In this document: positions 1-54,816 of the stretch, one piece after another
How positions within the stretch are numbered: the first letter of the stretch is position 1
Layout: each line of letters starts with the position of its first letter
Assembly (NCBI GenBank): GCA_023389035.1
Contig: JAEWFC010000004.1
Span: 39,894-103,893 of the forward strand
DNA length: 64,000 nt
From: Acidobacteriota bacterium
GTDB taxonomy: Bacteria > Acidobacteriota > Blastocatellia > Pyrinomonadales > Pyrinomonadaceae
Direction of reading: 5' to 3'
Notes under the pieces: model-generated
The model's database searches: none
The model's input: only the letters and a program-made list of their open reading frames with translations
What the model was told of the DNA's origin: nothing
Position numbers and translations under genes: made by a program

Positions 1-292
1 CAGACCAGTCGTTAAGAATGAAGAGCGATTCGCGGTGGAGATAATCCGCGGTCCAGTCGGGCGCGACATACGAGCCGTGGCCCCAAATGGACCCGACCTG
101 CATTCCGCCCATCGCCTGCCAAACGTTCTGGCCGTTTTCAATGTCACCGGCCGGAATAACGACCGAGCCGTCAGTCGATACTACCTCGACTGGTATGGGC
201 GGGGCTTGCCGAAAGATCTCGCTGCCGACCCAACCGAGTATGGCGAACGAGAATACAAATACCGCAATAAGAATGATCCAGAGATTCCTCAT
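1..292 (-). CDS. norB: Quinol-dependent nitric oxide reductase (qNor/NorB family), N-terminal 97 codons; gene continues beyond the left edge
   Basis: Absent from the ORF track because it is open at the window edge. Reverse translation from the ATG at 292..290 gives MRNLWIILIAVFVFSFAILGWVGSEIFRQAPPIPVEVVSTDGSVVIPAGDIENGQNVWQAMGGMQVGSIWGHGSYVAPDWTADYLHRE. That is an N-terminal TM helix plus the GQxxWQxxGGMxxGSIxGHGxYxAPDWTADxLHRE block I recall from qNor. Confidence 0.6.
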   Translation of the reverse strand, partial: MRNLWIILIAVFVFSFAILGWVGSEIFRQAPPIPVEVVSTDGSVVIPAGDIENGQNVWQAMGGMQVGSIWGHGSYVAPDWTADYLHRESLFILNDWS

Positions 293-654
293 TATGATTC
301 ATGTCTCCTTAGGTGGAAAAAGTTTTGACGGTCGGGAGGACGGCGCGCAGCGATAACGACAATGCGGCTCTGCGGGAAGATCTCCTGCATGCCTTCTTGC
401 GAACAAAGAGTTGACTGGTCGATGCGTCGAAGCTCCTTTTGTCTACATCTGCGGGCAAGTCTATCCTGATCGTGCCGACCGAAAAGATGACCTATGTCAC
501 ACAAAGCGAAAAAGTCGCGCGTGGGCTAACGCTGTTTGTGAATCGACCGGGAGTGAGCCCGTCGAATTCGGTTTAGGTGCACGCATTGTATTAGCCGTTT
601 TATCGCGGTGTCAAGCGGATTACGCCTTTAGAATTTGATAGAATCGAACCAATC

Positions 655-1755
655 ATGCAGTTTTCATTCGATCAGGAATTAATAGACATCGCCTTCAAGG
701 TCGAGGACGGCGAACGCCTCACCTTTGACGAAGGGATGGCTTTGTACAAGACGACGGACCTAAACGCGCTGGGCAAGCTCGCCGATACTGTGCGCCGCCG
801 CAAGCACGGGCTGACGACCTATTACAATGTCAATCGTCATTTCAATCACACAAATATCTGCGTGGCTGACTGCAAGTTTTGCGGTTTCTATCGCCGGGCA
901 CGTCAGGAAGACGCCTACACTCACTCAATAGAAGAAGGCATCGAGATCGCACGCAACGCCGTTGCTGAAGGAGCCACGGAACTGCATATCGTCGGCGGGC
1001 TTAATTCAAAACTGCCTTTCGAGTATTACACCGACCTGTTTTCATCACTTAAGCGAGAATTTCCGTCGCTGCATTTGAAAGCTCTGACGATGGTCGAGCT
1101 GGATTTCTTTGCTCGCTTCTACAAGATGTCGGACGAGGAAGTAATTGAACGTCTGAAGGCTGCAGGAATGGATTCGTGCCCCGGTGGCGGAGCAGAGATC
1201 TTCGCCGAACCGACACGCTCGCGCATTTGCGATCACAAATGCGACGGCGACCGCTGGCTCGAACTAGCAGGAAAAGTTCACAGGGCCGGCCTGAAGACTA
1301 ACGCGACGATGCTCTACGGCCATATTGAAACGATCGAGGATCGGATCGATCATTTCGTGCGGCTACGTGAACAGCAGGACAAGACCGGCGGATTTCAGTG
1401 CTTTATCCCGCTCGCCTTTTATCCGCCCGGCACGGCTCTGTCGTCGCTGCCCGGACCCGACGCGATCGACAATCTTAAGACCATCGCAGTCTCGCGCCTG
1501 ATGCTCGATAACTTTGACCACATCAAGGCCTACTGGGTAATGCTCGGCAAAGCCACCGCCCAGACCGCTCTCCACTTCGGCGCCAACGACCTCGACGGCA
1601 CCATCACCGACGGCGGCGAACTAACCCACGCCTACGCCGCCGAAGGCGAAGTAAAAATGACCAAAGCCGAGATCATAACCATGATCCAAAACGCCGGCTT
1701 CGAGGCTGTGGAAAGGGATACGGTGTATAACCGCGTCGAAAAAGTCGGGGTGTAA
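655..1755 (+). CDS. mqnE: Radical-SAM menaquinone (futalosine pathway) enzyme, MqnE/MqnC/CofH family, most like aminodeoxyfutalosine synthase MqnE
   Basis: 366-aa ORF with CxxxCxxC ([10 protein letters not shown]), [43 protein letters not shown] and [10 protein letters not shown] blocks. The MqnE versus MqnC choice rests on recollection only. Confidence 0.75.
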
Positions 1756-1756
1756 G

Positions 1757-2311
1757 ATGTGGTATTTTTCATCAATTAGTTTTGGCATTCTCATCTTGTT
1801 CGGAAGTTGTTCTGATTTGCCTACCGCAAACAACAGGCAGCGCGACGAATTAGCTATTCGAATGGAGCGAAAAGGCTGTTACGGGGAATGTCCGATTTAC
1901 GTACTGAACATTCAGTCGGACGGAAAAGTTGTCTTTGAAGGAAAAGGTTACACCGACGTAATAGGAACCGCTGAATCTCGAATAACCCAGCTTCAACTTG
2001 ACGAACTCTTGAAGGAACTTCGCAACGCGGATGTTTTCGGCCTGAGAGACTCATACGAAACTGGTGCCGATGGTTGTCCAACGGAAGCTACAGATATGCC
2101 CACTGTGATTCTGGATGTTCGCCTGAACGGTCAAGAGAAGAACATTTCGCATTACCATGGCTGTTTGGAGATTTCTGAACCGGGGCCCGTCGAGCCAGGC
2201 ACCGTTCGGCAGGCCGAACGACTTCGATCGTACCCGATGAAATTGACTCGTTTCGAGGAAAGAATTGACGAGATCGTCGGAACAAAACAATGGATTGGAG
2301 AACGTAAGTGA
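1757..2311 (+). CDS. Putative lipoprotein, DUF6438-like (cassette 1 inserted after the mqn stop codon)
   Basis: 184-aa ORF starting 1 nt after the mqn TAA. It has an N-terminal hydrophobic segment ending LFGSC (lipobox-like). The CYGECPIYVLNIQSDGKVVFEGKGY block resembles DUF6438-type domains (recollection). Confidence 0.6.
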   Translation: MWYFSSISFGILILFGSCSDLPTANNRQRDELAIRMERKGCYGECPIYVLNIQSDGKVVFEGKGYTDVIGTAESRITQLQLDELLKELRNADVFGLRDSYETGADGCPTEATDMPTVILDVRLNGQEKNISHYHGCLEISEPGPVEPGTVRQAERLRSYPMKLTRFEERIDEIVGTKQWIGERK

Positions 2312-2313
2312 AC

Positions 2314-2520
2314 AAAGCCGCCGCCCGGACCGCGCTCCACTTCGGCGCCAACGACGTCGACTTACGCCTCACCGACGGCGGCGAACTAACCCACGCCTAC
2401 GCCGCCGAAGGCGAAGTGAAAATGACGAAGCAAGAGATCATCGAAATGATCCGCCGTGCCGGCTTCGAGACCGTCGAAAGAGATACCGTCTACAACCGCG
2501 TGGAAAAGATCGCCGCATGA
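2314..2520 (+). pseudogene. Displaced copy 2 of the mqnE-like 3' end (last 68 codons plus stop), still an open frame (track ORF 2308..2520)
   Basis: Colinear with 1549..1755 without indels; 54 of 68 residues identical by my count. The conserved GANDLDGT block is degraded to GANDVDLR. A GTG start overlaps the upstream stop (GTGA, 2308-2311), and its TGA overlaps the next ATG (ATGA, 2517-2520). Confidence 0.8.
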
Positions 2521-3368
2521 TTATGAGAAAGGTCGTCATTGCATCATTTTTAATTTGTCTTCTGACGATTTGCGCTTCGGCTCAACACAGACCATTTGAA
2601 GATTTCCGGAAAGCCGTAAACGAAGAACCAGGCGGATTTGCGGGAAACAAAGGAAATCTCTCAAAAGTCTTCAACGATGAAAGGGTGCGGTTAGGGGAGC
2701 GTTTTGAAACTGAGCTATGGCTATACATTGAGGACGACCCTGACAAGCATTTTTGGATAGCCGCCTTCATTGACTCAAAATCGTACTTACACGGTAACTC
2801 CCCGCTGCCCGAACTAGCATTTCGGATACGCGAGAAATCACTCGGACTCCTCGGAAACGACAAAGTAAGTCGAGGACGAAGAGTTTCCATTCTTCGCGAA
2901 TTGGCAATTGCGTCCAAATTGACTGGAAATCAAGAGCAAGCGATCCGATTTCGCGACGAAGCTGAAGAATTAGCCAAAGATCCCGACTTAAGCTCCTATA
3001 TTTCCGGCAGAACCCAATACGATGTGTGTATATATGCGAACCTTACCGGCAGTATTTCATTGTGTAATGAAAAAGAGGCTCCGAAAGAAAGGATCATCTC
3101 TGCCGGTTGGATGAATAGCCGGGCGATCAACTTTCAGAACCCTAGATATCCGTCGGCCATCAAGAAGCCGAGATCAGTGGCTCGAGTTGAGGTTCGGATC
3201 ATGACGGACGTAGAGGGAAATGTTATTTCAGCAGCCGTCTCTCGCGGTCCGGTAGACTTTCATAACGCGGCTCTCGATGCAGCGAGAAAGCTGAAATTTT
3301 CACCCACTTTATTGTCTGGTGTTCCGACAAAGGTTTCCGGGTGGGTCTCATACGACTTTAAACCTTAG
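2517..3368 (+). CDS. Secreted protein with C-terminal TonB_C-like domain (cassette 2)
   Basis: The true start is most likely ATG 2517 (MIMRKVVIASFLICLLTICASAQ signal peptide). The long Arg-rich N-terminal extension of track ORF 2265..3368 reads across the mqn tail copy out of frame. The C-terminus VARVEVRIMTDVEGNVISAAVSRGPVDFHNAALDAARKLKFSP matches the TonB C-terminal domain pattern. Confidence 0.65.
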   Translation: MIMRKVVIASFLICLLTICASAQHRPFEDFRKAVNEEPGGFAGNKGNLSKVFNDERVRLGERFETELWLYIEDDPDKHFWIAAFIDSKSYLHGNSPLPELAFRIREKSLGLLGNDKVSRGRRVSILRELAIASKLTGNQEQAIRFRDEAEELAKDPDLSSYISGRTQYDVCIYANLTGSISLCNEKEAPKERIISAGWMNSRAINFQNPRYPSAIKKPRSVARVEVRIMTDVEGNVISAAVSRGPVDFHNAALDAARKLKFSPTLLSGVPTKVSGWVSYDFKP

Positions 3369-3378
3369 AAGCTATCGT

Positions 3379-3522
3379 GGCCGCGAGTTGACCCGCGCCT
3401 AGGCCGCTGAAGGCGAGGTGAAAAAGACCAAAGCCGAGATCATCACCATAATCCGAAACGCCGGCTTCGAAGCCGTAGAACGCGACACCGTCTACAACCG
3501 CGTGGAAAGGGTCACCGCATAA
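3379..3522 (+). pseudogene. Displaced copy 3 of the mqnE-like 3' end (about 47 codons) with an in-frame TAG
   Basis: Translates [46 protein letters not shown], aligned with [47 protein letters not shown] of the intact gene. TAG at 3400-3402 replaces the Tyr codon. Confidence 0.8.
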
Positions 3523-3635
3523 GCAATGAAGTCTGAATTTCAAGTTCTCAGTTCGCGTCCCCGTCAACAAATGGTTGATTCGAATTCGATTCGGGAATAT
3601 ACTCGTCAAACTTCAAACCAGTAAAGAGGAATAAA

Positions 3636-4271
3636 ATGAGACACTTTTTCGATTGCGTTTCGATCGCTGTACTTTTTTCGGCGGTTGCGTCGACGACGAG
3701 CGCTCAGTCGCTTGAGGACAACCAGAATTTCTATAGTTTTATGTCTCAAGTCAGGTCCATCCGGTCGTCAGTCGAGGACGGCGATAAGATCTTTCCGATG
3801 GAGTTTGTTTACTGTTTGGATAAGTATGAGAAACTCATCGCGAGCGGTGTGTCACCTTCAACCCGAGTTGAGAAGTATGCGGAGTTGGTTTGGAATGGAA
3901 CCTTGGCTGAGATCAAGGAAAAATATTGCGTCGCCCCTGAGAAAAAGGTGAATGACGAATGGGATGCGAAGCAAGCTCCGTACAAAGCCGCTCTAAAAGC
4001 AGACAAGCTTCGCCTAGTAATTAATCAGAATAGCCGTGTAATCTACTCCTATGCACTTGCCGGCGGCAAGTATACCGACGATGCAAAGGCTCTCGCCGCT
4101 GCACGTGTTTGGTTCTTAAATATTGGAACGTCTACCGCTGAGACTCGTGTCTGCCTGAATGGCGGCAAACTAAATTCGGTTCGTCGGTATTCGTTCGACG
4201 TAAATCACAAGCTGATCGGTACTACCGAAAAGGAATTTTGCGGCACTCCGCCGGCATCGGCATACCGATAA
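3636..4271 (+). CDS. Secreted hypothetical protein
   Basis: 211-aa ORF with signal peptide MRHFFDCVSIAVLFSAVASTTSAQS and an AAGAGGA-like RBS upstream. No recognisable domain. Confidence 0.55.
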   Translation: MRHFFDCVSIAVLFSAVASTTSAQSLEDNQNFYSFMSQVRSIRSSVEDGDKIFPMEFVYCLDKYEKLIASGVSPSTRVEKYAELVWNGTLAEIKEKYCVAPEKKVNDEWDAKQAPYKAALKADKLRLVINQNSRVIYSYALAGGKYTDDAKALAAARVWFLNIGTSTAETRVCLNGGKLNSVRRYSFDVNHKLIGTTEKEFCGTPPASAYR

Positions 4272-4338
4272 CGAGCCGCTAATAAAACGTCTCCCGGATC
4301 CACGGTCAATTTCACTTCCCGAAACCGTTCATTTGCGC

Positions 4339-4368
4339 TTGACACATGCAACCGTTTGGTTGCATACT
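4339..4368 (+). promoter_or_regulatory. Sigma-70-like promoter with palindromic ArsR-type operator for the arsR cluster
   Basis: TTGACA (4339-4344), an 18-nt spacer, then CATACT (4363-4368). The spacer holds the palindrome ATGCAACC-gttt-GGTTGCAT (4346-4365). The -10 box lies about 14 nt before ATG 4382, implying a leaderless or very short-leader mRNA. Confidence 0.5.
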
Positions 4369-4381
4369 TGCGCTCGTTGAT

Positions 4382-4702
4382 ATGAAACGAGATGTATTTC
4401 AAGCCATTGCAGATCCGACGCGGCGGGCGATAATCGCGCTAGTCGCGGTTCAGGCGATGACACCAAATGCTATCGCCGAGCATTTCGATACGTCGCGGCA
4501 GGCGGTGTCGAAGCACTTGCGGATACTCGCGGAATGCGAGCTTGTGCAGCAGGAGCAAAAGGGGCGAGAGATCTACTACCGGCTGGAGATCGAGAAAATG
4601 AAAGAGATCGATGAATGGCTGGAGCAGTACAGGCAGATCTGGGAAACGCGGTTCGAGCAGCTCGATGATCTGCTTACCGAACTAAAACTAAATAAGAAAT
4701 AG
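4382..4702 (+). CDS. ArsR/SmtB family transcriptional regulator
   Basis: [21 protein letters not shown]...[26 protein letters not shown] is a winged-HTH ArsR signature. ATG 4346 of the track ORF lies inside the predicted promoter, so 4382 is preferred. Confidence 0.8.
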
Positions 4703-4713
4703 GAGCGAATGAA

Positions 4714-5238
4714 ATGAAACCAGCTGAAGTGAGCACGCCTTCAGATCGAGAAGTATTAATTAAGCGGAGCTTTGATGCAGCGGCCGATCTGGTGTGGCAG
4801 GCATATACCGAACCCGCGTTGATGCGTCGTTGGTTAACGGCTATGCCCGGATGGTCAATGCCGGTATGCGAAATGACCACATCGGTCGGCGGCCATTATC
4901 GCTGGCGATGGCGCGATGACGCAAACGGCGTCGAGTTTGGCTTTACGGGAGAGATGATTGAGGTCGAGCCGCCGTCAAAGATCGTGCATACGCAAGTTTA
5001 TGACCCCGGCACCATGGGCGGTTCGATGGGAGATGGCGCGTCTGTCATCACTGTAACGTTCAATGAGACTGACGGGAAAACCAACGTGGCCACCCTGATC
5101 AAATTTGCATCAAAAGCGGATCGCGACGCGGCGGTATCAACAGGCATGACCGACGGCATGGAGATGAGCTACAAACAGCTCGACGAAGTGCTTAACACGC
5201 TCGACAGTGCTGAAGCCGGCGCGCCGGCAAGTGCGTAA
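4714..5238 (+). CDS. SRPBCC superfamily protein (AHSA1/Aha1-like domain)
   Basis: LIKRSFDAAADLVWQAYTEPALMRRWL start typical of AHSA1-domain proteins; sits in the classic position after arsR. Confidence 0.7.
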   Translation: MKPAEVSTPSDREVLIKRSFDAAADLVWQAYTEPALMRRWLTAMPGWSMPVCEMTTSVGGHYRWRWRDDANGVEFGFTGEMIEVEPPSKIVHTQVYDPGTMGGSMGDGASVITVTFNETDGKTNVATLIKFASKADRDAAVSTGMTDGMEMSYKQLDEVLNTLDSAEAGAPASA

Positions 5239-5274
5239 ACATCAACCCGGCCGAAGGCAGCCACTGATCGAAAT

Positions 5275-5760
5275 ATGGAATTCCACGTCAATAAAGAGAC
5301 GAAGACGGTCTCGATCACCAAGGAATTTGCGGCCGGGATCGACCTTGTTTGGGATGCTTACACCAAGCCGGAACTTCTGGATCAATGGTGGGCACCAAAA
5401 CCTTGGGTATCTAGAACAAAGGTCATGGACTTCAGAGAGGGCGGACGAAGATTTTACGCAATGGTCAGCCCCGAGGGAGTTAAGCGTTGGTCAATTCAGA
5501 ATTACACTTCCATCACCCCGAAGACCAACTTCAAACTCTTCAACGCCTTCGCCGACGAGAACGAAAACCTTGAACTTCCCGGCTCCGACTGGGATCTCAG
5601 TTTCACCGAGCAAGACCGCAAGACAAAGGTCCACATTTCGATCTACAACGAATCGCTCGAACGCCTCGAGAGAATGATCGAATTCGGCTTCCGCGAAGGC
5701 ACGATGGCGCAGCTGCAGAATCTGGAAGAGCTGCTCGCACGACTTTCGCGGCGATCTTAG
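5275..5760 (+). CDS. SRPBCC superfamily protein (AHSA1-like), second copy
   Basis: [31 protein letters not shown] block; paralogue class of the preceding gene. Confidence 0.7.
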
Positions 5761-5849
5761 CGGTGGTGTCTTAGCCTCGTTAGCGAGCCTTATCGACGGG
5801 GCTAATAGCCGAAAAAGATTGCTAAAGGCAGCCTCAGAGACACGTACCA

Positions 5850-6302
5850 ATGAATGTCCAACAACAGATCGATGGATATATCGAGAGCCAGCCCGAACCC
5901 AAGCGCGGTGAACTGCAGGCATTGCACGCGTTGATCCTGTCAGTAAGTCCGGCGGCGAAATTGTGGTTCCTTGATGGTAAAGACGCCGAAGGCAAGGTCG
6001 TTTCCAATCCGAATATCGGCTACGGCTCTCGACCACATGAATACGCCGATGGGGCGATCCGTGATTTTTACCAGATCGGCCTGAGTGCAAACAAAACCGG
6101 GATCTCTGTTTATATCCTCGGTATCGAAGACAAGCTCTTCCTGGCCGAAAGCTACGCCAAAGACCTCGGCAAGGCGACAGTCACCGGCTATTGCATCAGG
6201 TTCAGAACTCCAAAAGATATAAACACCGATGTTCTTGCAGCGGCGATCAGATTTGGGTTTGAGAGTTCGAATGAAAAAGGTAATGGAGGGCAAGAATCGT
6301 GA
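5850..6302 (+). CDS. DUF1801 (YdhG-like) domain protein
   Basis: IDGYIESQPEPKRGELQALHALI ... GYGS ... YQIGLSANKTGISVYI pattern as recalled for DUF1801. Confidence 0.6.
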   Translation: MNVQQQIDGYIESQPEPKRGELQALHALILSVSPAAKLWFLDGKDAEGKVVSNPNIGYGSRPHEYADGAIRDFYQIGLSANKTGISVYILGIEDKLFLAESYAKDLGKATVTGYCIRFRTPKDINTDVLAAAIRFGFESSNEKGNGGQES

Positions 6303-6826
6303 ATTCAGCTTTTTATGACATGCTCGAGGCGATTGGCAATCGCTCGGCAATGTATATCGACCCTTCACAGTCGATTACCGCACTCTACAACTTCCTCAGC
6401 GGATACCAGTCTGGCAGCAACTGGAAGAAGATTGTTAGAAATACCGAGCCATCATACGCCGAATTCAATAATTGGGTCGCGATGAAGTTGAACTTTTACG
6501 AGGCAACGAAAGGTTGGCGCAGAATGCTTCTTGAACGCGAAAATGGCGATGAAGAGAGAGCTTTCAAAGAATTCTTTGTTCTCCTCGATGAGTTCCGAAA
6601 CCGAAAAGAAACGCGATTGTTCCGAGCCGAGCTTCCCAAAAAGCCAGGCCGAAAGACAAAGATCCTTGAGATCGTCAAATATACGGACGACGGTGGTGTT
6701 TTTGTGCGGTCGATCAACTCTAGAAACAAGATCATCGATGAGATGTATTGGCAGACATTAAAGAACGCATTTGAGATCTATGAAATGCAAGTTGGCAAAT
6801 TAAGCTGGGAAGAAATAAAGAATTGA
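6299..6826 (+). CDS. Hypothetical cytoplasmic protein (orphan, immunity-protein-like size and composition)
   Basis: 175-aa ORF. The GTG start overlaps the upstream stop (GTGA); an alternative ATG lies at 6320. No recognisable domain. Confidence 0.5.
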   Translation: MNSAFYDMLEAIGNRSAMYIDPSQSITALYNFLSGYQSGSNWKKIVRNTEPSYAEFNNWVAMKLNFYEATKGWRRMLLERENGDEERAFKEFFVLLDEFRNRKETRLFRAELPKKPGRKTKILEIVKYTDDGGVFVRSINSRNKIIDEMYWQTLKNAFEIYEMQVGKLSWEEIKN

Positions 6827-6857
6827 TGCCGCCGAACGTTAATAAGGGCAGAACAAT

Positions 6858-7457
6858 ATGAGAAAAATAATTGCCTGTGAATTTATAACGCTTGATGGTG
6901 TTATACAGTCGTCTCCGGAGAACGGGTTTAAGTATGAAGGTTGGTTTTTTGGTTATACGGACGAGGAGTGCGGGTCGGTGATACAGGAGCGGTTGGCGAA
7001 GGAGGTCGATCTGCTGCTGGGGCGAAAGACGTTTGATATCTGGGAACCGTACTGGCCGACGCATTCGGACTTTTGGCCGAACGTGATGACGGCGACCAAA
7101 TACGTGGCCTCGAACACTCGCGATTCGAGCGACTGGCAGCCGACGGTATTCTTAGGCGGCGATCTTGCGGAAAAGGTCCGCGAACTTAAACAAACTGACG
7201 GACCGGACCTGCACGTTTTCGGCAGCGCCGATATGCTTCAGACGCTTTTCAAAGCCGATCTCGTCGACCGGCTGGAGCTGATGATATTTCCCATCACGCT
7301 GGGCCAAGGAAAACGCCTGTTCCAGGGCGGCACGATCCCCGCCGCCTTCAAGGTGACAGAGAGCCAGATATCACCAAACGGCGTGATCATCGCAAACTAT
7401 GAACGTGACGGCGCTGTAAAAAGTGGCGGGGCTCCTCAGATAAGTGAGGACGATTAA
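6858..7457 (+). CDS. Dihydrofolate reductase family protein (RibD C-terminal domain, YyaP/YwjB-like)
   Basis: [17 protein letters not shown] ... [11 protein letters not shown] ... [12 protein letters not shown] ... [19 protein letters not shown] is the typical RibD_C pattern. Confidence 0.75.
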
Positions 7458-7460
7458 ACA

Positions 7461-7658
7461 ATGGATCTACTAACGCGATACTGGTTCAAATTCGATGGTG
7501 CGGATAATTTTGTGAAATGGGTCGACGTTACCGCCTACAGCATTGAAGATGCGCGAGGCGTCATGCAGCAACATGTCTTTATAAATGGGCAAATGCCAGA
7601 GCTAGTAACCGTAACCGAGAATATTGACGTTTCGATGCTGGATGAGGGACATATATAG
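7461..7658 (+). CDS. Small hypothetical protein, probably a truncated member of a family whose conserved C-terminus continues after two TAG codons (to 7718)
   Basis: 65-aa ORF starting 3 nt after the DHFR-like stop. The same frame continues ...GHI*PNIGMPTSRGVW*PNLNSY*. A second copy of that tail at 8333-8388 reads [18 protein letters not shown] with no internal stop. Confidence 0.5.
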   Translation: MDLLTRYWFKFDGADNFVKWVDVTAYSIEDARGVMQQHVFINGQMPELVTVTENIDVSMLDEGHI

Positions 7659-7662
7659 CCTA

Positions 7663-7718
7663 ATATCGGGATGCCCACGAGCCGTGGTGTGTGGTAGCCC
7701 AACCTAAACTCTTACTAA
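7663..7718 (+). repeat. 56-bp repeat copy 1 (3' coding tail of the small-protein family)
   Basis: 52 of 56 nt identical to 8333-8388 by my count. Differences are agc/atc, tag/tat, ccc/cca and tac/tat, two of them synonymous third positions. Confidence 0.8.
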
Positions 7719-7794
7719 ACGGCGTGATCATCGAGACTACGACCGCGACGGCGATGTAAAGACCGGCTCACCTCAGATAGATGAGGAATAATAA
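7717..7794 (+). pseudogene. Displaced, frameshifted copy of the DHFR-like gene 3' end
   Basis: aaacggcgtgatcatcgagactacgaccgcgacggcgatgtaaagaccggctcacctcagatagatgaggaataa aligns to 7376-7457 ([26 protein letters not shown]) with a 1-nt and a 3-nt gap. It begins on the TAA of the preceding tail. Confidence 0.8.
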
Positions 7795-7816
7795 GATCTG
7801 ATTGAAACTAAGCACT

Positions 7817-8194
7817 ATGGGAGACGAGCGAGATTTTAACACTATTGAAGAGTTTTTACTGAAAGTTCCTAGTATCACTGGGACGATCGGCAAGGGCAGA
7901 TTCGAAAATGGAAATTGGTGGGTCAAATTTAAGATAGACATCTCGCATCCGCTTGCCTGGAGTGTTGTACAGGAGTTCGGTTGCATCTTCAACTACATTT
8001 CAGCAAATGAGAGGCTGCCGACCGTCTTTATGCCTGTGTCGCCGGCTCCTTACCTAAATGGCGGCCCCTCGGAATTTCTGTCATGGGTTATAGAGTCAAA
8101 AGATCCGAAATTCAAACCGGGTACTGCAAAAAAGTGGCTCGAAGGACGACTTCCGCAACCCGTCGACGATATCTCGATGTGGAACTCAGAATAA
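7817..8194 (+). CDS. Hypothetical cytoplasmic protein (orphan cassette gene)
   Basis: Track ORF 7802..8194 starts at TTG; the first ATG is at 7817 (MGDERDFNTIEEF...). No recognisable domain. Confidence 0.5.
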   Translation: MGDERDFNTIEEFLLKVPSITGTIGKGRFENGNWWVKFKIDISHPLAWSVVQEFGCIFNYISANERLPTVFMPVSPAPYLNGGPSEFLSWVIESKDPKFKPGTAKKWLEGRLPQPVDDISMWNSE

Positions 8195-8332
8195 TCAGAA
8201 TAAAGATGACCAATTGGAATCCAAAAATAGAAACTACAACTCTCGTCGTAACCATAGTAGTGGCGATGTTTGGAGGGAAAGGTTGGCGCAATTGAAGGGG
8301 AGATCATAAATCAACTTCGTGAAACGCCGGTG

Positions 8333-8388
8333 ATATCGGGATGCCCACGATCCGTGGTGTGTGGTATCCAAACCTAAACTCTTATTAA
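8333..8388 (+). repeat. 56-bp repeat copy 2 (orphan 3' tail fragment of the small-protein family)
   Basis: See 7663-7718. Upstream of 8321 the frame is closed (TGA), so only the tail survives. Confidence 0.8.
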
Positions 8389-8458
8389 TGCCTACTCGCC
8401 AAAGGATCACAAAGCCTCTTGTGAGGTTGAGCCTTCCGTGAAAAGACGTATCCGCCAA

Positions 8459-9355
8459 ATGAGAAAGATCATGAATTGGAGAGCAAACATGAGCACAACG
8501 CTACTTGTCCTATCGATGCTCCTGACGATTCTCCTGTCGGGTGTCGCCTTCGCACAGCAAAAACCGACGACCGGCTATGCTCCGGTTAATGGACTCAAGA
8601 TGTATTACGAGATCCACGGCAGCGGCGAGCCTGTTGTGATGCTTCACGGCGCGTTCATGGCGATCTCGGGGGACTGGGAAGAATGGGTTAAAGAGCTTGC
8701 GAAAACTCGGAAAGTGATCGCGGTCGATATGCAGGGGCACGGACGAACGGCCGATATCAAGCGCGATATTACATACGAAAACCTTGCGGACGATGTGGCG
8801 GGGCTGCTCGAACATCTGAAGATACCAAAAGCGGACATCGTCGGCTATAGTCTGGGCGCAGGTGCGGCAATAATGACCGCGATCCGCCATCCGAACAAGG
8901 TGCGAAAGGTCGTCAGTATCTCCCACCCGATACGGCGCGACGGCTGGGTCAAGGAAGCGAACGACTTTTGGCCAAACTTCAAGCTGGAAATGATGAAAGG
9001 CACGCCCGCCGAAACCGAGCGAGAGAAGCTAAATCCGGTCCCGAACAGCTTTCCGGCGTTCTTTGATCACATCAAAGCTGCGGCCATGCGACCGTGGGAC
9101 TTCGGCGCTGATGAGTTCAAAGCGAACAAAGCTCCGATCTTCGTCATCCACGGCGATGCGGACGGAGTCCGGTTGGAGCACATTGCCGAGATGTACCGAC
9201 TGAAAGGCGGGGGCAATATTCACGGGGACATGCAGCCACGTCCAAGTTCTAGACTGGCGATCATCCCAGATGCAACCCACGTCACTCTCATAAACAGAAT
9301 GACAACGATAGTTCCGATGATCAACGACTTTCTTAATGCCGTACCGCCGAATTGA
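8459..9355 (+). CDS. Secreted alpha/beta-fold hydrolase
   Basis: Signal-like N-terminus ([24 protein letters not shown]), HG oxyanion motif (VVMLHGAF), nucleophile elbow GYSLG, and late Asp/His (HGDADG, ATHV). Start is uncertain (GTG 8438, ATG 8459 or ATG 8471). Confidence 0.7.
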
Positions 9356-9383
9356 TAATGCCCGAAGTCTTGTAGTTACGCAC

Positions 9384-10646
9384 CTAAACACGGCGCATCG
9401 CTTCTACGGGATCGAGGCGCGCGGCTTTTAGAGCTGGGTAGAGACCGGAGACGAGCCCGACCATCAACGATGCTCCGAAACCGGCGGCGATCGCCCAAAA
9501 TGGTACGGCCGCCGGGAAGCTAACGATCTGACGAACGGCGAACGCGAGGAGAAGGCCGACGGCGATCCCGATCAGCCCGCCAAGGCCCGTCAGCGTGACC
9601 GCTTCGAGCAGGAACTGCTGAAGAATAGTCTTGCGAGTCGCTCCGACGGCTCGTTTTATTCCGATCTCAACGCTTCGCTCCCTAACCGCCACAAGCATTA
9701 CGTTCATTACGCCGACGCCACCGACGAATAGGCTTGCCAACGCGATCGGCACGACGATAACGCCGAGGCCGCTGATGATATCGTTGACCAGGTCAAACAC
9801 CTGCTCAGCGCGATTCACGCCGAAGTTGTTCGGCTCGGTAGCCGGCACACCTCTGCGTGTCCTCAGTAGATATGTTACGTCGTCTGTCACCTCATCAACA
9901 CTGCCTGGAGGTGCCCGCACTATTATCACGGTCGCTGTGATCTCAGGATAAAGTTTGTCGGCCGTTTCGAACGGGATGTAAACGGTCCTTTCATCCAGTT
10001 CGTCGCTGCCGATCACTCCCTGCGATGACCCTTGTCCGAGCACGCCGATAACGCGAAACAGCTTTCCGTCGATCTTGATGTCCTCGCCGATCGGATCAAG
10101 CTCTTCGAAAACCTGCCTAGCGATCCCGAAACCGATGACTGCGACCGGAGCCCTTGAGCGGCGCTCCTGCTCGGTAAAAAACCGGCCATCCGCGAGTGTC
10201 ACATTCACCACACGCGGGAAGTTGTCCCATACCCCGAGGATAAGGGGATTGATCGCCTCTCTCGAACGCGCTGTCAGCTTTGGAAGGTCGGCGGACGGGC
10301 CGTAACTGCCTCGGATCTTCTGGGGTGAGACCTCAAGCGGCGAACTTAGCTCGGAAACCGCTATAGCGTCTTCGAACGTCAGGTCTTTCCGCTGACGCTC
10401 CTCAGCCGTTAGTTGCTGAAGCGACGGACCGATCCGCGGTTCCTTCGTAAAATAGATCGTGTTCGGGGCGCTTTTTTCCGATACCTCCTGCACACGCTGC
10501 GACAGGCCGGTCAGCACAGCACCGACAAGAGCAACAACGGCCGTTCCGATGATGACGCCGGTTAGCGTCAATCCGGCGCGGAGCTTATTGGCGCGTATCG
10601 AACCCGCTACCGCCTGCCAATTATCCTTAGCTCTCTGAAAGTTCAC
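9384..10646 (-). CDS. ABC transporter permease, MacB-like periplasmic core plus FtsX domain
   Basis: 420 aa with an N-terminal TM, a large periplasmic domain and a C-terminal FtsX-type 3-TM bundle (GVMNVMLVAVRERSVEIGIKRAVGA). Confidence 0.8.
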   Translation of the reverse strand: MNFQRAKDNWQAVAGSIRANKLRAGLTLTGVIIGTAVVALVGAVLTGLSQRVQEVSEKSAPNTIYFTKEPRIGPSLQQLTAEERQRKDLTFEDAIAVSELSSPLEVSPQKIRGSYGPSADLPKLTARSREAINPLILGVWDNFPRVVNVTLADGRFFTEQERRSRAPVAVIGFGIARQVFEELDPIGEDIKIDGKLFRVIGVLGQGSSQGVIGSDELDERTVYIPFETADKLYPEITATVIIVRAPPGSVDEVTDDVTYLLRTRRGVPATEPNNFGVNRAEQVFDLVNDIISGLGVIVVPIALASLFVGGVGVMNVMLVAVRERSVEIGIKRAVGATRKTILQQFLLEAVTLTGLGGLIGIAVGLLLAFAVRQIVSFPAAVPFWAIAAGFGASLMVGLVSGLYPALKAARLDPVEAMRRV

Positions 10647-28076: not shown

Positions 28077-28559
28077 ATGATCAATCACTGGGAAGAATTC
28101 AATGTAACGCCAGACGCACGTGAGCCGATGGGTATGCGTGTTTCGCTGACGACGAGCGGCTTTATCTGTATAAACATGCGGGCCCTAAAGAACCTCGGCG
28201 AGCCGTCGCATGCCGTGCTCTATTTTGACCGGGCAAACAGCCTGATCGGGATAAAGCCCGGAAACGCTGCGCTCGCCAATGCTTATGCGCTTCACGCATG
28301 GGGCGATTCGCCGAGCAGGATAATTCGGGCGAAAAAATTCTGCACGTATCACGGCATTAAGATCGAACGGACGATCATCTTCAACGAACCGCGGGTCAAT
28401 ACCGACGGATTTCTTGTGCTTGACCTGAACCACACGCACATCAAGCTCAAATGGGCAGAGGTCGAGGAACAGGAACGGCTCGAGCTCGAAGCCCGTCGAC
28501 GCCTGATCGAAAAGCAGGGTTTTTGGTACGGAAAGCGCATGTTCCCGCTGCCGCGATAA
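28077..28559 (+). CDS. Uncharacterised protein, paralogue of 36289..36675 (family P)
   Basis: 160 aa with a GGAG RBS. Shares blocks with 36289..36675: IG(I/L)KP, FCT(Y/H)(H/N)GIK(I/V)(E/D)RT, DGFL(V/E)LDL. Confidence 0.65.
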   Translation: MINHWEEFNVTPDAREPMGMRVSLTTSGFICINMRALKNLGEPSHAVLYFDRANSLIGIKPGNAALANAYALHAWGDSPSRIIRAKKFCTYHGIKIERTIIFNEPRVNTDGFLVLDLNHTHIKLKWAEVEEQERLELEARRRLIEKQGFWYGKRMFPLPR

Positions 28560-36235: not shown

Positions 36236-36265
36236 TTGCATTCCGCATTCCGTCTGTGCTACATT
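36236..36265 (+). promoter_or_regulatory. Candidate promoter of 36289 flanked by direct and inverted repeats
   Basis: TTGCAT (36236-36241), an 18-nt spacer, then TACATT (36260-36265). Direct repeat TTGTTGCA at 36233-36240 and 36264-36271, tandem GCATTCC GCATTCC at 36238-36251, and inverted repeat AGTTGTT (36231-36237) / AACAACT (36279-36285). Confidence 0.4.
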
Positions 36266-36288
36266 GTTGCACGGATGGAACAACTATT

Positions 36289-36675
36289 ATGATCAAACGA
36301 TGGAAAAAATTCGAAGGGTCGCCAAACGGTTCGCGACGAGGCGAACCGCGGGTGACGATCCACAAGTCTAAAACTATTCTGCTTAATAAGGTGGTCTGGG
36401 AAAGGTTCGGTTCACCGAAGGCGGTCGAGATGTTTTTCGACGAAGGGCGGAACGTGATCGGGCTGAAACCGACGGATCCCGCCAAGTTCAACGCGTTCCC
36501 GGTCAAACCGCGAAAGAATGGCACCCACAAAATAATCAGCGCCGGCGCCTTCTGCACGCACAACGGCATCAAGGTCGACCGCACCGAGCTCTTCGCAAAC
36601 CCGCTCATCGACCGCGACGGCTTCCTGGAACTAGACCTAACCAAAACCATCACCGTCGGCCGCGGCTCTCGGTAA
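36289..36675 (+). CDS. Uncharacterised protein, paralogue of 28077..28559 (family P)
   Basis: Start preferred at ATG 36289 (MIKRWKKFEG...), parallel to MINHWEEFNV... of the paralogue. Confidence 0.6.
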   Translation: MIKRWKKFEGSPNGSRRGEPRVTIHKSKTILLNKVVWERFGSPKAVEMFFDEGRNVIGLKPTDPAKFNAFPVKPRKNGTHKIISAGAFCTHNGIKVDRTELFANPLIDRDGFLELDLTKTITVGRGSR

Positions 36676-36798
36676 GTTTCAATTTCTGCCCGGTATGAAC
36701 TAGGTCGCGGTTTGAGAGATTGTTCAGAGGGCTTATTTACCGCTGCCTTTAGGCAACGGACCAGTTAGCAAGTGAACTGGGCTTTAGCCCAACATCTG

Positions 36799-36863
36799 GT
36801 TTGGGCTAAAACCCCGTGTGTTGCCTAACGGTGACCGTTGGCTGAAGCCAACGGCAATATTGG
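36799..36863. repeat. Intergenic hairpin repeat type A, copy 1
   Basis: gtttgggctaaaaccccgtgtgttgcctaacggtgaccgttggctgaagccaacggcaatattgg contains the hairpin CCGTTGGCT-ga-AGCCAACGG. Matches 37549-37610. Confidence 0.8.
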
Positions 36864-36899
36864 TATGTTAGACCGTCTAGGTCAGACGGTCTTTAGGGT

Positions 36900-37478
36900 T
36901 TATTTAAGAGCGTCAACACCGCGTTTATCGTCGAGCCGACGGCTTTTGATGAAGACCAAAACAACGTTTCCTTCGAGCTTCCCGATGCGTCCCTCATGAC
37001 CTAGGTTTCCGAACAGGCCACGCGTTACGCTGCCCGAGACGTTTCCTACTCCAGCGGTGATCGTGGATTTCGGGGTTACGGCTTCTAATTCATAGAAGGC
37101 CGCACTATTTGCCCCGCGTCCGACCGCAAACTCTGCTTCTGGATACGCCTCAACAAATACCTTTGCCGGAATTTTATCCTTTGGTTTCTCTAGCTGGATG
37201 ATCGCCAGAGTACCGTCAACAAAATACAGCTTTACATCCTCAAACCCTTCGAGCTTTTCCCAATGAAGCACGCGAAGGTCATTCGGTTTGTCGATACCTT
37301 TCGCTATGTACTTGAGTGATCTGCTTGAGTCCTTATCCGACTTAGCCTTACCGAGCACTTCGATGGCCATTTGGGGAGTCGCTTCGTCAAGAACCAACCC
37401 ACGCCAGCGATCAGCAGATTGTCCAAATGAGAACGACGGTAAAAGTACCGTCAAAATAATCACGTGTATTAGCTTCAT
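36900..37478 (-). CDS. Secreted hypothetical protein
   Basis: ATG 37478 gives MKLIHVIILTVLLPSFSFGQ (signal peptide). No domain recognised. Confidence 0.55.
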   Translation of the reverse strand: MKLIHVIILTVLLPSFSFGQSADRWRGLVLDEATPQMAIEVLGKAKSDKDSSRSLKYIAKGIDKPNDLRVLHWEKLEGFEDVKLYFVDGTLAIIQLEKPKDKIPAKVFVEAYPEAEFAVGRGANSAAFYELEAVTPKSTITAGVGNVSGSVTRGLFGNLGHEGRIGKLEGNVVLVFIKSRRLDDKRGVDALK

Positions 37479-37548
37479 GGTTTGCCGTGGAATATATAGG
37501 AGACCGCCTACGGTCGTCAAGATTTTCGATTTGGTTTGACTGACGTCG

Positions 37549-37610
37549 TTTGGCTAAAGCCCGGTGTTTGTTAACCGGTAGCCGTTGGCTGAAGCCAACG
37601 GCAATATTGG
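37549..37610. repeat. Intergenic hairpin repeat type A, copy 2
   Basis: gtttggctaaagcccggtgtttgttaaccggtagccgttggctgaagccaacggcaatattgg. A partial third copy (ggcaaggccccggtgtgttag) lies at about 39118-39140. Confidence 0.8.
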
Positions 37611-37655
37611 AGCGGATCGATCTTTGGACGATTTTGATCAAGACGTTCAAGGCTG

Positions 37656-38114: not shown

Positions 38115-38184
38115 TCGCCCCTACGGGGCTCGGGTTCGGTTTTACGCTACGTTCTACAAACATTTGGCTCCTGCGGTGCCGCGG
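38115..38184. repeat. Intergenic twin-hairpin repeat type B, copy 1
   Basis: tcGCCCCtacGGGGCtcgggttcggttttacgctacgttctacaaacatttGGCTCCtgcGGTGCCgcgg; matches 38898-38966. Confidence 0.85.
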
Positions 38185-38214: not shown

Positions 38215-38790
38215 TTACGTTTTCGGTAACCGTTCACTATGAAAACGCACAATATGCTCCGGCTCGTTTTGGTACACTGCCTCCCATTCGTAGAGGTATG
38301 ATAGGCGAACAGATAACCCCGTCGCTAGATGCTCCGCAGGGAGACTGAAGATCAACGCTTTCCCCGATTCAAGAGGTAAGAGAAAGCAAGAGCCGGAATT
38401 GTAACCGAAGGGAACACCGGAGTCCGATTCGCGCCTAGCCTGCCTCACGGTGCGCTCTATATCGTACATTACGCCAACTTCGGTTTCGTTGTCCGCAGCT
38501 ATGAGCAGTTCTCCAGTCTTAGAAACTCCGAAGGAACAGAAGCGAATCTGAAACTTGGAATTATTAACTAGACGCAACCAGATCCCTTGATCGCTCTCGG
38601 TCGATCGAATAGGCGGCCGCTTGCCGTATCGAACGAATTCGATGTATACACCCGGTCGCGCCGTGTCAACCCGGAATTGGTCAACCTTCTTATTCTTGAG
38701 TTCATTCGGTACGTTCTGTGCAATGCCATGTGAAGCACAAAACACGTAAGAGAGAACTAAGAAACAGATCAGCGATCGTCGAAATTTCAT
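38215..38790 (-). CDS. Secreted hypothetical protein
   Basis: MKFRRSLICFLVLSYVFCASHGIAQ signal peptide; 191 aa; no domain recognised. Confidence 0.55.
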   Translation of the reverse strand: MKFRRSLICFLVLSYVFCASHGIAQNVPNELKNKKVDQFRVDTARPGVYIEFVRYGKRPPIRSTESDQGIWLRLVNNSKFQIRFCSFGVSKTGELLIAADNETEVGVMYDIERTVRQARRESDSGVPFGYNSGSCFLLPLESGKALIFSLPAEHLATGLSVRLSYLYEWEAVYQNEPEHIVRFHSERLPKT

Positions 38791-38897: not shown

Positions 38898-38966
38898 TCG
38901 CCCCTACGGGGCTCGGTTCGGTTTTACACTACGTTCTACAAACATTTGGCTCCTACGGAGCCGCGG
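38898..38966. repeat. Intergenic twin-hairpin repeat type B, copy 2
   Basis: tcGCCCCtacGGGGCtcggttcggttttacactacgttctacaaacatttGGCTCCtacGGAGCCgcgg. The track ORFs 38795..39004 and 38841..39140 across it are judged spurious. Confidence 0.85.
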
Positions 38967-44598: not shown

Positions 44599-44724
44599 GA
44601 GTTTTTCCTTCCTAGATTTTGTTGTTCGGTGATGTATGCGGTAAACGGAGATAAAGTAAGACAAATTTTTCGGGCGTTGTCTCGCTGACGATCTGAAGTA
44701 TTCCCTTTCGACCGCACGGACATC

Positions 44725-44757
44725 AAAAAAAAACGGCCCTTCTCAACGTAAGGGCCG
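44725..44757 (-). terminator. Strong orphan intrinsic terminator upstream of the beta-helix gene
   Basis: Minus strand: CGGCCCTT-acgttgag-AAGGGCCG followed by T9 (plus-strand A9 at 44725-44733). No annotated minus-strand gene ends here. Confidence 0.7.
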
Positions 44758-54193: not shown

Positions 54194-54411
54194 GGTGGGA
54201 AACCTCAATTTCTGGAATGCGTACGTGGGATAAGGTGTGGGAGACTCTATCTCAAGAGGAGAGCCTCTATACCTTTTAAACAAGTTTAATAGATGAGACT
54301 TTCCAGCGAAAGGCGCACCGGAAAAAACTTGTTTTACACGCCACCGGCGTAAAACTAAGCAGGACTTGAAGTTAATCGTAAAAAAAAATTTGGGGTCTGA
54401 TACCGGGTTCG

Positions 54412-54816
54412 TTGCGGCTTCGCGTTGTCAGGTCCTGGCAGGACAGATTTACCGTGTCTGCAGCGGCGTTTGTATTGAATAGTGAAGGAAAGGTACTGCT
54501 GCTGAACCACGTCTTCCGGCCATTCTCCGGCTGGGGTTTGCCCGGCGGTTTTTTGGATCATGGTGAATCAGCGGAAGAAGCGATCAGACGCGAACTTGCG
54601 GAGGAAGCGGGTATTGGACTGGATGACCTGCAGATGTATCGGGTTCGCGTAGTGAACCGGCATGTGGAGATCCTCTTTATAGCAAAGGCCGTCGGCGAAG
54701 CGGTGGTGAGCAGCCGCGAGATCGTGGGGCTCGGCTGGTTTTCGTCAGATGATCTGCCGAAAGATCTAAGCAAAGGCCAGGCCAGGCTGATCAGGTCGGT
54801 TCTTGAGACGGTTTGA
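54412..54816 (+). CDS. NUDIX hydrolase
   Basis: Nudix box GGFLDHGESAEEAIRRELAEEAGI. Start uncertain (TTG 54412 or GTG 54454). Confidence 0.75.
   Translation: MRLRVVRSWQDRFTVSAAAFVLNSEGKVLLLNHVFRPFSGWGLPGGFLDHGESAEEAIRRELAEEAGIGLDDLQMYRVRVVNRHVEILFIAKAVGEAVVSSREIVGLGWFSSDDLPKDLSKGQARLIRSVLETV

Follow-up and report, generated by a model that had tools for sequence, protein, structure and literature searches.

Arrays of displaced mqnE gene ends in Pyrinomonadaceae and their probable origin by homology-anchored displacement

How does the 3' end of a housekeeping gene come to stand three times in a row, each time followed by a different gene? The question is raised by a 64,000-nucleotide (nt) stretch of contig JAEWFC010000004.1 (positions 39,894 to 103,893, forward strand; assembly GCA_023389035.1), which belongs to an Acidobacteriota bacterium of the family Pyrinomonadaceae and is referred to below, at its full length, as the window. 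It carries an intact mqnE gene, encoding the aminofutalosine synthase of vitamin K2 biosynthesis, and two further copies of the end of this gene ("tails") downstream. A first-pass annotation had interpreted the copies as traces of successive insertions targeted to the 3' end of mqnE, by analogy with integrase-borne elements, and had matched them to no described system. We compared the locus with its relatives and conclude, with a probability of about 0.6, that such arrays record homology-anchored displacement of gene ends, in which a dedicated recombinase is apparently not involved. Nucleotide positions refer to the window unless a locus is named, and related mqnE loci are designated by L and a number.

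Copies of the mqnE 3' end in the window

The gene and its tails are as follows.

655-1755, plus strand: intact mqnE, aminofutalosine synthase of 366 amino acids (aa) with Radical_SAM and CofH_C domains (TIGR03700, 488 bits at a cut-off of 434.55)
1548-1755, plus strand: tail 1, the functional 3' end of mqnE, 68 codons and TAA, first copy of the repeat
2313-2520, plus strand: displaced tail 2, matching the MqnE C-terminus, with an open reading frame (ORF) of 70 aa at 2308-2520
3379-3522, plus strand: displaced tail 3, 47 codons and a stop codon, with an in-frame TAG at 3400-3402

The encoded MqnE is 85%–95% identical in aa sequence to its Pyrinomonadaceae orthologues. Self-BLASTN aligned positions 1548-1742 with 2313-2507 at 83% identity without indels (E = 2.7e-52), 1612-1741 with 3379-3508 at 82% (E = 1.4e-30), and 2377-2518 with 3379-3520 at 78% (E = 3e-26), and a repeat search placed all three tails into a single family. 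Tails 1 and 2 agree in 54 of 68 residues and in 167 of 207 nt, and the GANDLDGT motif of tail 1 is changed to GANDVDLR in tail 2. The recurrence of the 68-codon tail with these residue counts, the altered motif, and the shortened third copy with its internal TAG had all been described in the first-pass annotation and proved exact on recount. Its observation that a single gene lies between each successive pair of tails, joined through TAAgATG, GTGA and ATGA, was reproduced at the same coordinates; the GTG start of the tail 2 ORF overlaps the stop codon of the upstream gene, and its TGA overlaps the ATG of the next one.

The differences among the three tails are mostly synonymous, the ratio of nonsynonymous to synonymous differences (pN/pS) being 0.17–0.36; Nei-Gojobori comparisons with the L004 and L005 tails were set aside, since a 2-codon indel shifts the ungapped alignment. 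Tail 2 is of the KQEIIEMI type found in the intact tails of L001, L002, and L004, and resembles the intact tail of L002 most closely (89%), whereas tails 1 and 3 are of the KAEIITMI type found in L003, whose intact tail is the best match of tail 3 (88%). Such a distribution of types argues against duplication in place followed by decay. The three tails thus carry differing functional-type alleles, in agreement with the earlier suggestion that DNA of more than one lineage took part. The TTACGCCTC variant of tail 2 is also present in tails located behind hicB in L156 and L001.

Arrays, empty sites and exchanged tails in related loci

A scan for MqnE in one genome per species and in a metagenome collection yielded 160 loci, all of them from Pyrinomonadaceae or Blastocatellia. 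Arrays were counted in loci for which 1.5 kb or more of downstream sequence was available, separately for a close clade (MqnE at least 84% identical) and a distant clade (below 80%). Displaced tails were found in 18 of the 42 close-clade loci (one tail in eight, two in nine, and four in one), while 24 had none; in the distant clade they were found in 0 of 74 loci (Fisher's exact test, p = 6e-10). Empty sites (for example, L002, L006, L026, and L093) and alternative contents at the same position, which it had been proposed to look for, are therefore present among close relatives, and they support the view of the tails as relics of successive displacements of the mqnE 3' end. A filled and an empty site can even be paired: in L026, mqnE is followed by a Uma2-like gene, and in L012 two genes and a tail are located between mqnE and the same Uma2-like gene. 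The displaced tail of L012 is 93% identical to the L026 tail, compared to 66% for the adjacent gene. This pair was uninformative for identification of the native tail, both L012 tails being about 91% identical to that of L026. The repeats flanking inserts are 57–245 nt long, and copies within one genome are 75%–91% identical and represent different allele classes. Neither a second full-length mqnE nor internal mqnE fragments were found in the 160 loci.

The tails are mosaics of alternative functional-type segments, and many displaced tails are closer to the intact tail of another genome than to their own. The displaced tail of L004, together with 36 nt of 3' untranslated region (UTR), is 99.4% identical over 161 nt to the intact tail of L093, whereas these two loci are 70%–85% identical elsewhere. 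Tails are also linked to particular neighbours. The ending EKAAV followed by the stop codon precedes a DUF4258 pair both in the intact tail of L001 and in a displaced tail of L166, the start of hicA overlaps the stop codon of the preceding tail in at least six loci, and the tail behind hicB starts near codons 299–317 in at least eight loci. The order of the units varies among genomes although their junctions are linked on both sides, and crossovers inside tails would give exactly such a pattern. In L094 (4216-4419) and L095, a strongly palindromic 205-nt element resembling miniature inverted-repeat transposable elements (MITEs) is the sole DNA between the mqnE stop codon and the displaced tail (CCATAACTTTAGCTACA...TGTAGCTAAAGTTATGG, inner hairpin GTGTAACACGCG...CGCGTGTTACAC, folding z = -6.0); the tail is duplicated there without protein-coding cargo.

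Three genes are located between and behind the tails of the window.

1757-2311, plus strand: DUF6438 lipoprotein-like gene (PF20033, 1.7e-27), with its ATG 1 nt past the mqnE stop codon
2517-3368, plus strand: gene for a secreted TonB_C-domain protein (PF03544, 3.3e-8), starting at 2517 or 2523
3636-4271, plus strand: gene for a secreted protein with no assigned function, behind the putatively oldest tail (tail 3); homologues with 47% aa identity in L002 and L093

The first two had been regarded as inserted cassettes, but neither is exotic: in array-free relatives, such genes are native neighbours located directly behind mqnE. DUF6438 homologues directly follow mqnE in L162–L164, L039, L021, L019, L096, and L097, and TonB_C homologues (44%–46% aa identity) are located 8 nt past the mqnE stop codon in the array-free L010 and L078; the gene order in array-free relatives is mqnE, DUF6438 or TonB_C, and then Uma2 onward. 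Therefore, a displaced tail with the gene behind it looks like a former junction of mqnE with its neighbour. The L002 homologue of the gene at 3636 is closely preceded by 28 nt (10468-10495) that are left of the tail block.

The region of about 7.6 kb behind mqnE (1757-9355) is densely packed with co-oriented small accessory genes and resembles a cassette array without recognisable recombination sites. In addition to several unassigned genes, it encodes ArsR, two AHSA1/SRPBCC proteins, DUF1801, RibD_C, and an alpha/beta hydrolase-like protein. The T-poor DNA of the tails leaves all reading frames open, which creates spurious ORFs running from gene through tail to gene, for example, one of 367 aa at 2265-3368. 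Similar read-through ORFs occur in L081, L093, and L002, and automatic annotation could be misled by them.

Cargo, boundaries and other affected gene ends

Array cargo varies by genome, as shown by Pfam annotation of about 30 array ORFs. It includes toxin–antitoxin modules (a DUF4258 pair, hicAB, a PIN pair, and Gp49/HigB with a helix-turn-helix partner), nucleases (Uma2-family, HNH, a weak GIY-YIG match, and Vsr with a Dcm fragment), a UvrD-like helicase, TPR and ankyrin proteins, a PIG-L deacetylase, and small secreted proteins. A toxin-like ORF of L081, similar to ParE/RelE by eye only, reads into its displaced tail.

Four Pfam searches and a comparison with PHROGs revealed no integrase, transposase or resolvase in these 30 array ORFs or in 10 ORFs located directly behind mqnE in array-free relatives, the lone exception being a marginal Y1_Tnp-like match of 23 bits in L005. 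No intI or other integrase was seen by translation or Pfam in 1–9.5 kb of the window, no tRNA or tmRNA is located within the window, and Rfam gave no match at E <= 1 in positions 1-9500 and none at the gathering score across the whole window. The tails have no conserved hairpin or dyad. Their folding is marginal (z from +1.25 to -2.7) and the best hairpin differs between allele types, so an attC-like or cruciform site in the tails was rejected, as was the idea that they represent a known structured RNA or a tRNA/tmRNA target. No promoters or terminators were predicted inside the tails, the counts being not above those of shuffled sequence. The template and variable repeats of a diversity-generating retroelement were also dismissed because substitutions are of all types rather than adenine-specific, and no reverse transcriptase was seen.

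The boundaries of the tails likewise do not fit a site-specific enzyme. The 5' ends of 39 displaced tails are spread over nt 1511–1699 (about 190 nt) with no common boundary, and every 3' end reaches the stop codon. The fixed crossover point implied by an integrase-style reading is therefore missing, and the analogy with tail-targeting integrases also lost ground on the lack of an integrase or transposase in the annotated array ORFs or beside mqnE in the close-clade loci examined. L004 and L007 share a 5' junction while carrying different cargo; this candidate for site specificity was discarded, since several coincidences of this kind would arise by chance with 39 boundaries over about 190 nt.

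Nor is the phenomenon restricted to 3' ends. Copies of the mqnE head (its first 57–91 nt) are located 5' of the gene in L010, L012, and L143, and the displaced head of L012 is separated from the true start by a foreign gene. A second gene is affected in the window itself.

6858-7457, plus strand: RibD_C-family gene with a displaced tail (PF01872, 3.3e-21); functional tail copy at 7373-7457
7461-7658, plus strand: 65-aa ORF between the RibD_C gene and the displaced tail, with no Pfam or PHROG match
7714-7794, plus strand: displaced RibD_C tail with a 1-nt frameshift (repeat 7373-7450 / 7714-7787, 78% identity)

The displaced RibD_C tail is identical to the window's own tail in 61 of 74 positions and to the tails of L156, L023, and L093 in 53 of 61 to 58 of 70. 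In L156, a copy of the first 39 or so codons of the RibD_C orthologue stands about 600 nt before the intact gene, and a DUF433-like ORF and a 107-aa partner ORF are located between the displaced head and the gene. Thus, neither specificity for 3' ends nor specificity for mqnE is supported.

Several side observations concern these loci. A non-coding repeat of 56 nt (7663-7718 / 8333-8388, 93%–94% identical, ATATCGGGATGCCCACGAGCCGTGGTGTGTGGTAGCC...CTAAACTCTTA) fills, with its first copy, the space that separates the displaced RibD_C tail from the 65-aa ORF, and its second copy follows the ORF at 7802-8194; no copy of the 7663-7718 repeat was found in any of 160 related loci. In L012, members of one gene family (F39) are located on both sides of mqnE, at 6995-7636 (minus strand), 8816-9472 (plus), and 9522-10169 (plus), one copy being between the displaced head and mqnE and two between mqnE and the displaced tail. 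F39 was considered as a possible nuclease or recombinase, and it has no Pfam or PHROG match and hence no sign of either. Region 4371-8183 of L081 was rejected as a third gene with a displaced tail. It consists of three complete adjacent genes on the minus strand (4377-8168). Their N-terminal parts differ, one being beta-helix-like and the other two containing TolB/WD40-like repeats, and they have a common C-terminal domain of about 286 nt (about 95 aa) at 89%–90% nt identity, which suggests gene conversion or domain swapping among neighbours.

Other repeats and paralogues are present elsewhere in the window. Structured repeat units at 36730-36870 and 37530-37625 are 84% identical over 36801-36863 / 37549-37610, contain nested hairpins, including CCGTTGGCT-GA-AGCCAACGG (DNA folding z of -5.0 and -3.0), and flank one minus-strand ORF for a secreted protein (36900-37520), having the look of repetitive extragenic palindromic elements or MITEs. 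A 70-nt direct repeat (38115-38184 / 38898-38966, 94% identical, GCCCCTACGGGGCTCGG...TACAAACATTTGGCTCC), with folding not above that of shuffled sequence, flanks one minus-strand ORF with a signal peptide (38215-38790). Two large secreted proteins encoded on the minus strand (42022-44742 and 52205-54427) have a common C-terminal region of about 270 aa with 45% aa identity and internal repeats with a period of about 135 nt, of FG-GAP/VCBS type by eye. Finally, small plus-strand ORFs at 28077-28559 and 36256-36675, about 8 kb apart, are paralogous (35% aa identity over 120 aa).

Origin of the arrays and its meaning

Ordinary homologous recombination, rather than a dedicated integrase, is the most likely cause of the arrays. 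In one Pyrinomonadaceae clade, a highly variable region made up of small accessory genes adjoins mqnE, and the last 250 nt or so of mqnE could act as a portable homology region. DNA of a related lineage, carrying an mqnE 3' end and different downstream gene(s), would enter the cell, and one crossover would take place in the resident mqnE, within its conserved 3' region. The other end would join illegitimately within the resident tail, by homology-facilitated illegitimate recombination (HFIR), or, in existing arrays, by homologous recombination between tails, possibly via an excised circle. As a result, the incoming tail would complete mqnE, and the resident tail with its own downstream gene would be pushed downstream as a 5'-truncated pseudogene. 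Repeated events would stack units of a tail and a gene, and crossovers between tails would shuffle, delete, and spread these units. In the window, tail 3 with the gene at 3636 would most likely have been displaced first, tail 2 with the TonB_C gene next, and tail 1 with the DUF6438 gene would have arrived last. The anatomy, with scattered 5' ends and constant 3' ends, fits a variable join within the tail, with the opposite boundary at a break in synteny.

The zone in which displaced tails begin coincides with an unusual block of mqnE.

About 1456-1690, plus strand: block within mqnE homogenised at synonymous sites, C-rich and T-poor (GC skew -0.26, AT skew +0.34)

Among the 20 genomes of group A, mean pairwise nt identity at codons 280–320 is 95%–96%, compared to 75%–88% in the gene body, and it drops to 78% across the last 25 or so codons. 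Third-position identity in the block is 87%–89%, with a running mean of 0.96–0.98 around nt 1590–1615, and the share of C at third positions (C3) is 63%–90%. Displaced copies of the block have diverged: in the window, tails 1 and 2 agree at about 89% of positions in the part of the block that both contain. Arrays were found in 11 of 16 group A and 5 of 21 group B loci (p = 0.009), and also without the block in L012, L016, and L024. The block may have been left by frequent exchange within the anchor zone, perhaps with biased conversion; the alternative is a recognition site.

The latter would fit site-specific capture, with the block as the attachment site of a tyrosine or serine recombinase, encoded on decayed larger elements or acting in trans as in an integron, and a replacement tail delivered by each insertion. 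We consider this scenario unlikely. It would account for the extreme conservation of the block exactly where displaced tails start, for the excess of arrays in group A, for cargo of the kind typical of mobile DNA (toxin–antitoxin modules, nucleases, and restriction-modification fragments), and for a discrete unit of about 160–180 nt (tail with 3' UTR) that is near-identical between otherwise diverged genomes. However, apart from the weak Y1_Tnp-like match in L005, no integrase, transposase or resolvase was found in the arrays or beside mqnE in the close-clade loci examined, the 5' ends do not share a boundary, no conserved hairpin, dyad or Rfam match was detected in the tails, arrays exist in loci lacking the block, and the same anatomy is seen at displaced heads and in a second gene.

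Alternatively, a whole locus (for example, hicAB-mqnE-X) could have been duplicated or imported, with the redundant mqnE then deleted down to a tail retained for its translation-coupling signals. Consistent with such a course, hicAB is located immediately 5' of full-length mqnE in L094, L095, and L023 and, in the arrays of at least eight loci, precedes a displaced tail by a few to about 50 nt, and the cassette genes of the window are native mqnE neighbours elsewhere. Every tail retains its stop codon and a tight or overlapping junction with the next gene, and upstream ORFs end close to the tails, as stepwise deletion limited by selection would yield. Yet none of at least 39 displaced tails extends 5' of nt 1511 (codon ~286), the 160 loci contain neither internal mqnE fragments nor a second full-length copy, mqnE head fragments do not exceed about 30 codons, and the copies belong to different allele classes rather than being decayed duplicates of the resident tail. 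All this makes duplication with decay an improbable source of the arrays.

We are still more doubtful about the block, of about 135–230 nt, as a dedicated recombination site maintained across species, at which a trans-acting recombinase or selfish gene conversion captures and exchanges cassettes of a tail and a gene. If true, it would represent an integron-like platform hidden in an essential gene, with toxin–antitoxin modules stabilising the array. A role of the displaced tails as silent cassettes donating sequence to mqnE by gene conversion, as in pilS/pilE, or of the 70-aa tail ORF as a functional small protein, appears very improbable. The mosaic structure of intact tails, the open frame of tail 2 with its coupled start and stop, and the better conservation of some displaced tails than of adjacent genes (as noted for L012) could be explained in this way, but many tails contain stop codons, frameshifts or truncations (tail 3 of the window, L005, L083, and L081, among others), T-poor composition alone keeps all frames open, the conserved motif of the catalytic region is degraded in tail 2, and variation of the C-terminus of a radical-SAM biosynthetic enzyme has no plausible benefit. 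Joining of mqnE ends of co-occurring strains during assembly or binning, which had been named as a finding that would overturn the first-pass annotation, is hardly conceivable: the data are mostly metagenome-assembled and a block common to co-occurring species could tangle assembly graphs, but an independent European Nucleotide Archive (ENA) assembly (L167) is 100% identical to the window locus across 6,311 nt, the arrangement is present on six contigs, arrays occur in long-read and chromosome-scale assemblies, among them L083 and the 4.5-Mb contig of L025, and copies are 9%–25% diverged with unique sequence joined at both sides, those of the window differing by about 17%, so an assembler could neither collapse nor invent them.

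Several points weigh against homology-anchored displacement. Of the 67 array ORFs, about 30 are covered by the cargo annotation. An upstream cassette often has its stop codon just 1–30 nt before the next tail, which is tidier than expected for random illegitimate joins, and later trimming by deletion or selection for translational coupling has to be invoked. An identity of 95%–96% combined with a C3 of 90% in the block is not quantitatively predicted by simple recombination and could mark a recognition site. Among intact genes, distances in the distal tail track those in the gene body (rho 0.41) about as closely as those in size-matched body windows do (rho 0.34); this comparison gave no signal of decoupled tail and body phylogenies, and a general foreign origin of intact tails is therefore not demonstrated. 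No recent event has been caught, the closest pair of an intact and a displaced tail in one genome being 91% identical (L005). The hosts are uncultured lineages represented by metagenome-assembled genomes. The anatomy of the arrays, their variability among genomes, the empty sites, the mosaic tails, the two-sided linkage of junctions, the lack of a recombinase among the annotated ORFs, and the occurrence at heads and tails and in two genes are observed directly, whereas we infer how the DNA entered, that RecA was required, that the first join was illegitimate, and in which order the units of the window arrived.

Contrary to the initial impression that no described system matches, the anatomy of the arrays is shared with three of them: C-terminal displacement in rhs genes (PMC2935791), displacement of type VI secretion system (T6SS) effectors (PMC5361080), and insertion with long target duplication (PMC2853133). 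For rhs, Jackson et al. (2009; PMC2935791) proposed homologous recombination, possibly with circular intermediates and limited by sequence identity; orphan CdiA-CT/Rhs-CT modules have also been described (PMC3150448). In both cases, a variable 3' end with a linked downstream gene stands behind a conserved region, an incoming tip displaces the old one, which is left downstream with a fragment of the conserved region of variable length, and long arrays are formed without an integrase. Accordingly, an intact gene with dissociated 3' fragments is seen here in the window (2313-2520 and 3379-3522) and, with 1–4 fragments, in 18 of 42 close-clade loci, and the fragments vary in length, with 39 tails starting at nt 1511–1699. 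However, the host gene here encodes a housekeeping biosynthetic enzyme rather than a polymorphic toxin, the mqnE tails are homologous and functionally equivalent, unlike rhs tips, which are different toxin domains, and the linked genes are unrelated cargo (lipoprotein, TonB_C, toxin–antitoxin, nucleases) instead of cognate immunity genes. Hence, it is not obvious why selection would favour the swapping as such.

In Vibrio cholerae, sequential displacement of T6SS effector genes by HFIR was proposed by Kirchberger et al. (2017; PMC5361080), who cite two papers on this process in transformable bacteria (PMC122324, PMC122325). The likeness includes a one-sided homology anchor in conserved upstream sequence with an illegitimate join at the other end, downstream movement of the older module with effector 3' ends, serial arrays, and the absence of a detected integrase. 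Here, in distinction, both heads and tails of ordinary genes are affected and a homogenised block marks the anchor zone; HFIR has been proven experimentally in a few competent species only. Insertion with long target duplication (Nobusato et al. 2000; Furuta et al. 2010, PMC2853133), which is known chiefly from species with natural competence, also involves small gene units without mobility genes, flanked by direct repeats of 46–423 bp that are single in the empty site and sometimes overlap gene 3' ends. The mqnE arrays similarly have flanking repeats longer than 30 bp (57–245 nt), empty sites, and no mobility genes found in the annotated ORFs. The differences are that long target duplications are about 90%–100% identical and carry restriction-modification systems, while mqnE copies are 75%–91% identical, represent different alleles, are stacked up to four deep, and carry varied cargo.

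Elements targeting dusA and guaA are integrase-borne elements located at the ends of protein-coding genes. Integrase-mediated integration with replacement ends takes place at tRNA, tmRNA or protein-coding genes and is also known for tycheposon islands (10.1101/2020.12.28.424599). As in the mqnE arrays, the target gene stays intact owing to a replacement end and displaced partial copies pile up beside it, but these elements encode an integrase and use a fixed crossover core, neither of which was found here in the annotated ORFs or among the 39 boundaries. Integrons resemble the arrays in their co-oriented, small, promoter-less genes rich in toxin–antitoxin modules, a repeated element between cassettes, and the newest cassette nearest the fixed end. 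Unlike integrons, the mqnE locus has no intI in 1–9.5 kb and no attC-type imperfect palindromes were seen, and its repeat is a fragment of the adjacent gene.

The process itself has thus been described before; new are its setting at a housekeeping gene in Acidobacteria and the homogenised block of about 200 nt. Heads and tails of no fewer than two genes are affected, and the cargo is varied and often selfish. Displacement of gene ends, described mainly for polymorphic-toxin loci and restriction-modification units, is extended to an ordinary gene of poorly studied, dominant soil bacteria. For the sharply bounded block, three testable roles can be proposed: it could be a recombination hotspot where conversion is biased, an anchor of homology that is kept by selfish means, or a genuine recognition site. 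Displaced heads and tails preserve a fossil record of these events, and their genome-wide mining could measure integrase-free gene flow. These findings suggest that conserved genes beside variable regions may serve as portable homology arms, allowing diverged lineages to trade neighbouring genes without the machinery of mobile elements.

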